Shown here piece by piece: positions 35,650 to 38,969 of a DNA stretch of 64,000 nt. Source of the stretch: a virus. Lineage: Duplodnaviria; Caudoviricetes. A program made the position numbers and the translations under genes. The notes below the pieces were generated by a model, which saw only the letters and a program-made list of their open reading frames with translations, was not told where the DNA came from and made no database searches. Within the stretch, counting starts at the first letter, position 1, and each line of letters opens with the position of its first letter. The stretch lies in IMG/VR virus record IMGVR_UViG_3300042870_001240. One strand, 5' to 3'.

Positions 35650-36063
35650 GGGGGTAAATTGGAATTGACTGACATAGTTGGTTGTTCGGGGCATGTCAAG
35701 GCTGAGCTAACCTTGTAAAACTGGTTTAAATCGATATACGGCAACGTTATCAACAAACTTTCTGCAGTAGGATTAATCCGCACTGAAGAAAATGTTTCAG
35801 TAGCCTAAGGCGAAAAAAACAACGGGTAGATAGACTTATACCTAGGAACAGAACAGTCTTCATGGTGTGACATCTACCATAAAAGGTGTAAACTCTAACC
35901 AATCAGAGGATAATCAGATGGCAGAGGATAAGTTCTCAGTAAACCGAACTGTATAATAAGGGAACTGTGGGATTTCGGATTGTTAGATTAAACAATGACC
36001 TAAACATGTAGTCCTTAATAATCGTTATGGACAACTACGAGGGTTCGAGTCCCTCTATCTCCA
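35650..36063 (+). ncRNA. ssrA: tmRNA
   Basis: 5' GGGGGTA pairs with 3' TATCTCC-A including G3:U70; T arm GAGGG-TTCGAGT-CCCTC; 5' GGAATTGAC; tag ORF 35740-35808 GNVINKLSAVGLIRTEENVSVA*. Confidence 0.9.
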
Positions 36064-36120
36064 CATTTAACATTTTTGTTCTTTTACTATATTTTGAAAT
36101 ATTTATAGTGAAAGAACAAA

Positions 36121-36801
36121 ATGCCAAGAAAAAAACCTAATTTCCACTATATCTATAAAACCATTTGTAATTTTAATCAAAAATACTATATCGGAATGCA
36201 CAGCACATCTAATTTAGAGGATGGGTATATGGGTAGTGGTAAAAGATTAAGATATTCAATAAGAAAGTATGGTAAGGATAACCACACTAAAATTATTATA
36301 GAGTTTTTACCTAACAGAGAATCATTAAAAGAACGTGAAATTGAAATTGTTAATTCGGATTTATTATTAGATGAAAATTGTATAAATCTTAAAACAGGTG
36401 GTTATGGTGGAGGGAAATTTTATTCTGAAGAACATAAATTAAAATGTTCTAAATCCGGTAATGAAATGTTTTTAAAAAAAATGCAAGATGAGGAGTATCG
36501 GAAAGAGTTTTCGAAAAAATTAAGTAATGCTTATAAAAAACAAGTTCTTGAAGGTAAACGAGAAAAAAAATATTTTTACCATTGGAATGGGAAAACTCAC
36601 ACAGATGAATCTAAACAAAAAATGAGTGAAGTGAAGAAAGGGACTGGTATTGGTATTAAAAATTCACAATACGGGACTTGTTGGATAACTAAAAATAACG
36701 AAAATAAAAAAATTAAAAAGACTGACATTAATCTGTATTTAGATGATGGATGGGTTAGAGGTAGAAATACAGGTATAACCAAAAAGATAACTAAAGTATA
36801 A
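36121..36801 (+). CDS. GIY-YIG (Seg-like) homing endonuclease with a NUMOD3-like motif
   Basis: YIY...YYIGMH...YMGSG; HTDESKQKMSE. Confidence 0.85.
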   Translation: MPRKKPNFHYIYKTICNFNQKYYIGMHSTSNLEDGYMGSGKRLRYSIRKYGKDNHTKIIIEFLPNRESLKEREIEIVNSDLLLDENCINLKTGGYGGGKFYSEEHKLKCSKSGNEMFLKKMQDEEYRKEFSKKLSNAYKKQVLEGKREKKYFYHWNGKTHTDESKQKMSEVKKGTGIGIKNSQYGTCWITKNNENKKIKKTDINLYLDDGWVRGRNTGITKKITKV

Positions 36802-36802
36802 T

Positions 36803-36836
36803 AAAAAACCCCACCTGTTTAGGATGGGGTTTTTTT
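36803..36836. terminator. bidirectional terminator
   Basis: AAAAAACCCCA...TGGGGTTTTTT between convergent genes. Confidence 0.8.
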
Positions 36837-36837
36837 G

Positions 36838-37137
36838 TTAGGATTTAAATCCCTCAATGATTTGTAATAGTTTGTCAGCTCGTTTGTCAGTATGACTTTT
36901 AGATTCTTGATGAAGTTCATCGATACGTCTATAGATGTGGTCAACAGTAACGTCTAACTCACGTTTATTTTCGTCTAAAATTCTTTGGTCGTAATCAACA
37001 TCTCTTTCATAAGATATTCTGAAATCTTCCAAATCTTTTTTTGTTCTAACAACCTTAACTAACCCCCAAACAAGAGCAACAATAAAAATTATTGCAATAA
37101 TCGAAAGGACACCTAAAGTAAAATAAAATGTTTCCAT
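36838..37137 (-). CDS. small membrane-anchored coiled-coil protein
   Basis: N-terminal TM helix FTLGVLSIIAIIFIVALVWGLV. Confidence 0.65.
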   Translation of the reverse strand: METFYFTLGVLSIIAIIFIVALVWGLVKVVRTKKDLEDFRISYERDVDYDQRILDENKRELDVTVDHIYRRIDELHQESKSHTDKRADKLLQIIEGFKS

Positions 37138-37206
37138 TATTTTAAGATTTTGTTTTTTATACCTCAAGGGTAATAAAATATAATGGAGAGTGTAGAAAAA
37201 GGAAAT

Positions 37207-37250
37207 AAAAAAAAGGGAGATAATGATGGCTAGTCAAAATCTCCCTTTTA
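37207..37250 (-). terminator. terminator closing the RNA-gene transcript
   Basis: Minus strand AAGGGAGAT...ATCTCCCTTTTTTTT. Confidence 0.7.
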
Positions 37251-37632
37251 GCCTAAACATTGTCACTCGGTAAGTTCAACCCGAGGTAGTGATTAGTGAA
37301 ACCTCTACCTAACTTCTATCGTGAGTTGTGATTGGTGTACGACCTAAACGTTTGTATGTTTATTACCCTTTATTAATTTTAAGACTTAAAGGGAACGTGG
37401 TTATAACAAAATCCACATCCTATAAAAAAAGTCCTGACAATTTTTACCACTATATCACCTCAGGTTGTCGTGTCAAAGACAGATTGGTACTTATTACTTT
37501 TTATATTTTCTATGAGGTAGAATCGTGAAGTCACAAGATAAAACAAACACGCAAAGACCCAAATCATTATGTTTTCCTTCAGTTTAAACTCGTGGTGGGT
37601 GTTATGATTTAAAAAAACACGTACGGAGTCAC
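37250..37632 (-). ncRNA. candidate ~380-nt structured RNA (unassigned)
   Basis: No credible ORF; multiple inverted repeats; lies between tRNA-Met and a terminator. Confidence 0.45.
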
Positions 37633-37636
37633 TTAG

Positions 37637-37709
37637 TTGCGGGAGAAGGATTCGAACCTCCGACCTAAAGGTTATGAGCCTTTCGAGCTACCAACTGCTC
37701 TATCCCACT
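37637..37709 (-). tRNA. tRNA-Met(CAT), initiator-like, no encoded CCA
   Basis: Cloverleaf; loop CTCATAA; unpaired 1:72 (A:A); TTCGAAT T loop. Confidence 0.9.
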
Positions 37710-37727
37710 ATATTTGGCTATAAATAA

Positions 37728-38590
37728 GGCTGAGATTACACCTGTTTATGAGAAACTTTAGTAGGATTATTGATTCCCCACATATCCACTTCCTTTTGAG
37801 AAGTATTCCTCAGTGACGATTGGTTAGACCAATCACTTCTTGAGATATCAGTTACTCTCTTATTACTTAACTCTCTTCAAAGATGCCTCTCCGACTCTTC
37901 CTTATGGGAATAGAGGTTTTTGGTAAGAATACAGTCAGACTTGCGGTCTTCATGTGCAATGAACGGCTCATTACTATGTAGTCACCTTTCACTGATACCT
38001 AACGGACACTTTTGCTTATTTTTAGTTAATTTTACTTAATTTAGTATAAGTTACGTGTTGTGGATGAATCAAAGTAGCGGTCCGTTGAAGGATTCGTTCT
38101 CTTTTGGAAAACGAAATACCAAACTACTCCGTGAGATGTCCCCATCTCCATATTTTAAGATTACTTCGTACCAAGACTTTGGTAAGTCTTTGATAAGGAC
38201 AGTAGCGACACCACTCGTTCTCTATCTTACCTTTCGGTTTTAAGTCCCCTCTTATATTGGTAACCGCAATCATGTAGTTGGAGACCACATTTTTTGCTTG
38301 ATACCTATGGGTTATTCTTATTGGAGTTCCCTCCTCAGACTGACAATCCACATTGCCGTTCCACCCAACCACTTTCCCTAAAGCGTTGCCCTCAGTACTA
38401 AAGGTCGGATGATATCCCACTTGTGTACTCGACCTCGGTTTCCCAAGACGCGAACCTACTAACACTTGAAGATTCACTTTATCCCACTTTCGTGGTTTAT
38501 TTAACGACCATACACGGCCGATTATCTTTTTTCAGTTATCTCAGAATCAACCCGAAGGTCTCATCATAAACATCCTGATGGATAATACAA
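37728..38590 (-). ncRNA. ~860-nt large ornate RNA, GOLLD-like
   Basis: No credible ORF; many GNRA/UUCG-capped hairpins; directly upstream of a tRNA in a phage; own promoter and boxA. Confidence 0.65.
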
Positions 38591-38593
38591 TAA

Positions 38594-38661
38594 TTCAAAG
38601 AACATATCGGACGTTTCCGATTTTGTTTTACAAAGATAGTAAACTTTTTTGATTTACCAAA
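38594..38661 (-). promoter_or_regulatory. promoter + hairpin + boxA-like leader, copy 1
   Basis: TTTG-N19-TATCTTTG (38661-38631), hairpin ATCGGA-AACG-TCCGAT, TGTTCTTTGAA. Confidence 0.7.
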
Positions 38662-38737
38662 TCTTTTTTTGTTTTTTTTTGAGATTAGGAAACCACGATT
38701 TTACAACTAACTGTCAACCCATTCTCATTTTGTTTTA

Positions 38738-38769
38738 CAAAGATAAGACATTTTTTTCAATCTGTCAAA
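38738..38769 (-). promoter_or_regulatory. Bacteroidetes-type promoter
   Basis: TTTG-N20-TATCTTTG. Confidence 0.6.
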
Positions 38770-38778
38770 TCTTTTTAT

Positions 38779-38895
38779 GGTTATTATAACTGATGCGGTA
38801 ACATATTTCATTTACACTTTAAATGCGAAGGAGTCCCGTAGTCACTTTCCTCACATACAACAGTAGCCCTACGGACCTAGACTGTTTCTATAACC
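38779..38895 (-). ncRNA. candidate ~115-nt structured RNA
   Basis: Terminal GGTTAT/ATAACC pairing plus crossed ACAGT/ACTGT and CCGTAG/CTACGG helices. Confidence 0.4.
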
Positions 38896-38901
38896 AATTT
38901 C

Positions 38902-38969
38902 TTCAAAGAACTAAATCAGACGTTCCCGATTTGTTTTACAAAGATAGTAAACTTTTTTGATTTACCAAA
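38902..38969 (-). promoter_or_regulatory. promoter + hairpin + boxA-like leader, copy 2
   Basis: TTTG-N19-TATCTTTG (38969-38939), hairpin ATCGGG-AACG-TCTGAT, GTTCTTTGAA. Confidence 0.7.

Follow-up and report, generated by a model that had tools for sequence, protein, structure and literature searches.

Large, highly structured RNAs of bacteria and their phages are few, and three of them, GOLLD, ROOL and OLE, have recently been shown to form RNA-only assemblies. The ROOL RNA averages 581 nt and is organized around six multistem junctions (PMC5737381), and its nanocage has been described (PMC12286853). Two further groups of phage RNA bear on the locus considered here: theta (HDV-like) ribozymes, which are pseudoknotted and lie at most 5 nt from the 3' end of tRNAs in phages of Bacteroidota (PMC10879173), and the viral candidate structured RNAs of Fremin et al. 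2023, which were identified by covariation in IMG/VR intergenic regions and have models of 29-151 nt (PMC10690425). Our literature search found no description of an RNA located behind GOLLD. Such an RNA, here called the element, occupies minus-strand positions 37207..37633 of the 64,000-nt stretch of phage DNA that we analysed (the window).

The window contains the major head, portal and terminase genes of a T4-like phage whose close relatives are freshwater metagenome records, one related record being 292 kb long and an estimated 99% complete. Matches to promoters of the Bacteroidota type suggest that the host probably belongs to that phylum. Upstream of GOLLD, pattern scans place three such promoter matches (38969, 38769 and 38661, within 38594..38969) and two boxA-like motifs (38911 and 38603) on the minus strand; these calls are consensus matches, and six similar promoter-pattern matches occur elsewhere on that strand. 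GOLLD follows at 37727..38620, comprising an Rfam RF02032 match (38131-37727, 319 bits) and a 5' domain and leader reaching to ~38620, and this region aligns full-length with 10 relatives. Next comes a tRNA-Met(CAT) gene at 37637..37709, called by both ARAGORN and Rfam, with no encoded CCA and likely to serve as processing punctuation, and then the element. Between GOLLD and the element, no site resembling a terminator was called, and the three apparently share one transcription unit. Strand assignment of the element rests on this operon context, the test of strand by fold alone being a tie; a tally of G-U versus A-C pairs was set aside, since hand curation biases it. A separate tmRNA (35650-36066, Rfam) converges on the operon.

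Several other features of the window were recorded along the way. A ~120-nt minus-strand segment upstream of GOLLD (38778-38897), behind its own promoter match and boxA, is near-identical in one divergent relative (L298), while in three others (L008, L011 and L127) an insertion of 31 nt interrupts it at one point. The segment has no match in Rfam and is able to fold so that its ends pair; it is possibly another small RNA of the GOLLD operon. Directly after the tmRNA, a plus-strand homing-endonuclease gene with a NUMOD3 motif (36121-36801) is missing from a 97%-identical relative (L001) and from L012. A weak tRNA match at 47065-47152 (minus strand, 32.5 bits) has enlarged D and anticodon regions and is not called by ARAGORN.

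The original prediction had proposed a large structured RNA at 37250-37632, between tRNA-Met and the terminator. A distinct RNA does lie there, as the comparison of six lineages and the swap and hold-out tests described below indicate, but its limits were misplaced: read on the minus strand it extends through the terminator to ~37207, giving ~425 nt including terminator and U-tract, an extent reproduced by full-length profile matches in all six lineages. The statistics of the single sequence are unremarkable. Every inverted repeat listed in that prediction is present at its plus-strand coordinates, and repeats of 5, 6 and 7 bp number 124, 29 and 8, against shuffled means of 119, 33 and 9. Folding energy no better than shuffled controls had been named in advance as grounds for abandoning the idea, and this is what was found (z = +1.54 for the plus and +0.77 for the minus strand of 37250-37632); across lineages without the terminator z runs from +0.85 to -1.83, all of these being scores from nested MFE folding, which cannot score pseudoknots. 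We nonetheless have little doubt that the element is a real structured RNA, because the comparison between lineages demonstrates structure. No open reading frame is common to the lineages, and none of the six has an Rfam match at E up to 10, consistent with an uncatalogued RNA. Sequence words of 36700-38800 occur in 22 freshwater metatranscriptome runs (shares up to 0.38), which is not evidence for the element, because GOLLD alone makes up ~40% of that interval.

Homologues were sought with profile HMMs. Lineages A-C were found through patterns from neighbouring proteins, the GOLLD end and the tRNA end, and lineages D-F with a pattern of two short 5' motifs only, after the helices had been written down. 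Lineage A consists of window-like copies (86-99% identical), B of six loci (L019, L107, L108, L110, L128 and L129), C of L027, D of L298, E of L309 and F of L294 and L296. The lineage A profile matches B at E = 5e-10 and C matches A at 5e-5 (in 2.2 Mb), while profile E-values for D-F range from 6e-36 to 4e-19. Pairwise identity between the six lineages is 42-63% and their lengths are 396-444 nt; in total there are 23 distinct element sequences, plus four more loci. We found no homologue in cultured-phage records and, by pattern search, none in bacterial genomes; BLAST, which is insensitive at such divergence, returned no distant second copy in 29 records.

The fold was evaluated by a swap test, in which each helix is scored by how well the two strands native to one lineage pair (duplex energy), relative to strands exchanged between lineages, using a sequence-only alignment. 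Summed over 14 helices, the native strand assignment was the best of 720 permutations (mean -67.6 versus -40.0 kcal/mol). A blind scan of 9453 window pairs placed hand-picked helices at ranks 1-6, 8 and 10, under a calibrated null in which only 0.9% of random window pairs reach p<=0.01. In each of the held-out lineages D, E and F, the ten helices noted beforehand beat 1000 of 1000 shuffles as well as every swap. Within lineage B, six pairs are altered on both sides, including pairs of PK1 and P3; lineage A varies too little to contribute much covariation. These p-values derive from six independent lineages only, and helices of 3-4 bp are individually weak. The covariation search that the original prediction had called for thus shows helices kept at 42-63% identity, and by sequence comparison a conserved, multiply pseudoknotted fold with fixed ends and constant position is shown.

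The 5' end forms a predicted double-pseudoknot domain (37561..37633). Its outer pairing, PK0 (37629-37626 with 37591-37588, p = 0.17), encloses hairpin P2 (37620-37616 with 37603-37599, p = 0.0014), shows a double compensatory change (ACTC/GAGT to GTTC/GAAC) in lineage C only, and is followed by a near-invariant TAAACT. From the P2 loop, P3 (37610-37604 with 37567-37561, p = 0.0097) forms a pseudoknot that corresponds to one of the repeats first noticed (37561/37604). Two hairpins follow with weak support, P4 (37551-37548 with 37527-37524, p = 0.13) and P4b (37522-37519 with 37511-37508, p = 0.08). The central domain (37366..37481) begins with P6 (37481-37478 with 37469-37466, p = 0.06), whose loop engages in PK1 (37476-37471 with 37439-37434, p = 0.09; p = 0.003 in the blind scan), where a compensatory A-U to G-C change occurs inside lineage B. 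P6b (37465-37463 with 37448-37446, p = 0.024) is followed by PK2 (37433-37429 with 37387-37383, p = 0.008), which reaches into the P8 loop across the nearly invariant hairpin P7 (37416-37413 with 37400-37397, p = 0.075); P8 itself pairs 37393-37388 with 37371-37366 (p = 0.0014). P7 and P8 account for two more of the predicted repeats (37397/37413 and 37366/37387), both conserved across lineages.

Three hairpins lead to the terminator: P9 (37327-37324 with 37314-37311, p = 0.008), P10 (37309-37305 with 37289-37285, p = 0.0014) and P11 (37284-37281 with 37270-37267, p = 0.006), the last being the conserved repeat 37266/37281. P10, with a conserved TCAC loop (37299-37296), ranks first of the 9453 window pairs and is the best-supported helix; it is also the local partner (at 37284) of the CTACCT that had been assigned two possible partners. 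The intrinsic-terminator-like hairpin (37245-37239 with 37221-37215, within 37207..37253; stem p = 0.003) carries an 8-nt U-tract; in four of six lineages its loop (37232-37228) is complementary to 37253-37249, with a compensatory change from GGCTA/TAGCC to GGTTA/TAACC. Pseudoknots had been anticipated, and this comparison supports P3 and PK2 well and leaves PK1, PK0 and pairing of the terminator loop as plausible. A further predicted repeat, 37457/37513, is kept in 10 of 10 close relatives (lineage A), but the comparison between lineages gives it no significance (p = 0.10). In all six lineages the 5' GTGA could pair with the P10 loop, both sides being nearly invariant (p = 0.17). Two candidates were dropped after the swap test, a closing helix (37632-37627 with 37333-37328, p = 0.47) and a CGT/ACG pairing (p = 1.0).

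All 23 distinct element sequences and the four additional loci lie directly 3' of GOLLD, even though two of the searches did not demand GOLLD, which was confirmed by Rfam in L107 and L108. The spacer between them varies. It is tRNA-Met in lineages A, B, D and E, and in four lineages the conserved 5' motif of the element begins 2-3 nt past the tRNA discriminator base. In lineage C a mini tRNA-like hairpin replaces tRNA-Met (L027 11087-11139), a 53-nt spacer that folds like an acceptor stem plus T-arm and may be a minimal processing signal; lineage F has no tRNA, its gap being 21-25 plain nt. In one lineage B subgroup, GOLLD and the element are separated by a homing-endonuclease gene of 178 aa that runs into a 5'-truncated tRNA (L019 1522-2058, minus strand; likewise L028, L030 and L032), its stop codon sitting in the anticodon loop of a tRNA-Met without its 5' acceptor strand. 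The suggestion that the tRNA acts as punctuation, releasing the RNA from a common precursor, is plausible, but the tRNA is optional: because the spacers of C, F and the B subgroup vary, the element does not need a tRNA, though a tRNA can punctuate. Separately, tRNA-Met (37709-37637) is exchanged for a quite different tRNA-Met in L007 (2463-2537), where the flanking GOLLD and element remain ~94% or more identical. A short TAGCC motif (window ~37717-37713, minus strand) comes after the 3' end of GOLLD in most loci that carry the element and is absent from those GOLLD-only loci that were read.

GOLLD also occurs without the element, in at least two lineages, and ~10 element-free GOLLD loci close with a terminator-like hairpin shortly after GOLLD. 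In a close, syntenic relative (L348 6042-7075), GOLLD (279 bits, with a divergent 3' domain) is followed by a tRNA-Met-like gene, missed by ARAGORN and Rfam, and then by a terminator; L348 is a natural allele without the element. In a 635-kb phage (LR745206.1; L277 3836-4117), the place of the element after GOLLD is taken by two tRNA-like units whose D-arm region contains inserts. The notion that the element is confined to one GOLLD subclade was dropped once L348 and an outgroup were added. The GOLLD tree, whose root is unsure, requires three changes of element presence, probably one gain and two losses. Between the same lineages the element diverges faster than GOLLD (42-63% versus 70-85% identity).

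We tentatively favour, with somewhat less than even confidence, a stable and abundant RNA that folds separately, closes an rRNA-style phage operon and acts in trans as a scaffold or decoy in infection. Transcription would run through tandem promoters, boxA, GOLLD, tRNA-Met, element and terminator; the tRNA would be excised by RNase P of the host together with a 3' endonuclease, for instance RNase Z, freeing GOLLD and the element at equal copy number, and the 5' pseudoknot and the terminator hairpin would shield the two ends of the latter. The final steps are the least certain: the RNA would fold compactly and perhaps multimerise, acting in trans as scaffold or decoy while its short near-invariant patches might bind a factor of host translation, RNA decay or defence. 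The element would then be co-expressed with GOLLD without being a required part of the GOLLD cage. Such a separate RNA is favoured because GOLLD, even GOLLD with a tRNA-Met-like gene, occurs without the element, and it is weakened because the element was never seen without GOLLD in the loci examined; lineage F counts against the release step because it has no tRNA.

That constant company suits an accessory of the GOLLD cage, whether cargo, a lid or a second subunit docking by tertiary contacts, or an attached 3' domain where no tRNA intervenes, as the gap of only 21-25 nt in lineage F would allow; the cages formed by GOLLD are hollow, and it has been proposed that other molecules are held inside (PMC12286853). 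We consider this rather unlikely. Neither the element-free GOLLD lineages nor the endonuclease gene that separates the two RNAs in one subgroup fits it well, and a scan of 23415 window pairs found no covarying Watson-Crick pairing between GOLLD and element (best score -2.9), whereas the same swap scan did recover helices inside GOLLD, reaching -5.1 there and -4.9 inside the element. A more specific version, in which the element docks on or inside the cage through tertiary contacts as a second structural RNA of a natural hetero-RNA machine, encoded by a phage operon that mimics the host rRNA operon with the tRNA as spacer, we regard as doubtful.

Chains of pseudoknots can block nucleases, and the pseudoknot chain of the element could be such a block; it might belong to its precursor in cis, as an exonuclease roadblock stabilising the transcript or as a processing ribozyme releasing either the tRNA or the 3' end of GOLLD. 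The conserved 5' double pseudoknot lies 2-3 nt after the tRNA, a location in which theta ribozymes are found (PMC10879173), but no lineage has an HDV-like fold at its 5' end: seven of eight sequences have no match even to a loose HDV descriptor, and the one match, in lineage F, is mid-molecule. No ribozyme family in Rfam matches, the element is retained in loci with a lost or broken tRNA, and ~420 nt far exceeds what a roadblock needs, all of which makes a cis-acting module improbable.

A riboswitch or attenuator that decides whether transcription passes the terminator and enters the next gene is very improbable, even though the terminator stands just ahead of a gene in five lineages and upstream sequence can pair with its loop in four. 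The conformational switch once suggested by the two CTACCT partners finds no support in the comparison, the long-range helix (37304/37515) not being conserved (p = 0.23), and the downstream context varies: genes differ between lineages, lineage F has no same-strand gene but only a convergent tmRNA, and the element is usually missing beside homologues of the 99-109 aa gene. The view of the region as spacer or promoter DNA without function, its repeats due to chance, to which the shuffle-like repeat counts and folding energy and a sigma70-like promoter match at 37476-37449 would be congenial, is largely refuted and barely credible given covariation across six lineages and a -35-like hexamer that coincides with the PK1 loop and gives way to other sequence in the other lineages. 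A separate 190-nt 6S-like RNA starting from that same match was likewise rejected, the hexamer being the PK1 loop and not conserved; the sub-region behind the match has a folding z of -2.26 with the terminator included, and a pattern scan detected no Bacteroidota-type promoter inside the element.

With its secondary structure already tested, this ~420-nt RNA family lends itself to probing and cryo-EM. Since every copy found shares the GOLLD operon and yet GOLLD can do without the element, pairs of loci with and without the element, such as L296 and L348, also offer a handle on the function of GOLLD and the content of its cage.

Compared with described families, the element has neither a T-arm motif nor a shared ORF, as would suggest a tmRNA; it has neither an Rfam match nor the CR-V of RNase P RNA in any lineage, CR-I-like words appearing in two lineages at unrelated positions; and it has no R/S pattern (P7 core) and no Rfam match of a group I intron. 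Like theta ribozymes it is a pseudoknotted RNA that starts near a phage tRNA 3' end (PMC10879173), but it is far longer than these and departs from HDV in helix order, its crossing strand starting inside the hairpin loop. The models of Fremin et al. 2023, compared by length only, are too short to cover it, though a fragment of it may be among those candidates (PMC10690425). With GOLLD (RF02032) it shares an operon, occurrence in the same phages, and a structured, non-coding nature, but the RF02032 model matches the neighbour at 38131-37727 and not the element region; the complete GOLLD model (1-416) does not include the element, which is usually found past a tRNA and is absent from many GOLLD loci. 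It resembles ROOL as a large, multiply pseudoknotted phage RNA located by tRNAs, with few invariant nucleotides and no assigned function (PMC5737381), and differs in that no lineage (396-444 nt) matches the Rfam ROOL models at E up to 10, in being ~420 nt rather than 581 nt on average, and in forming a chain of local pseudoknot domains instead of six multistem junctions. Long, non-coding, tRNA-adjacent and built of covarying helices and pseudoknots, the element apparently represents an unpublished family of large pseudoknotted phage RNA, of the same ornate kind as GOLLD and ROOL.
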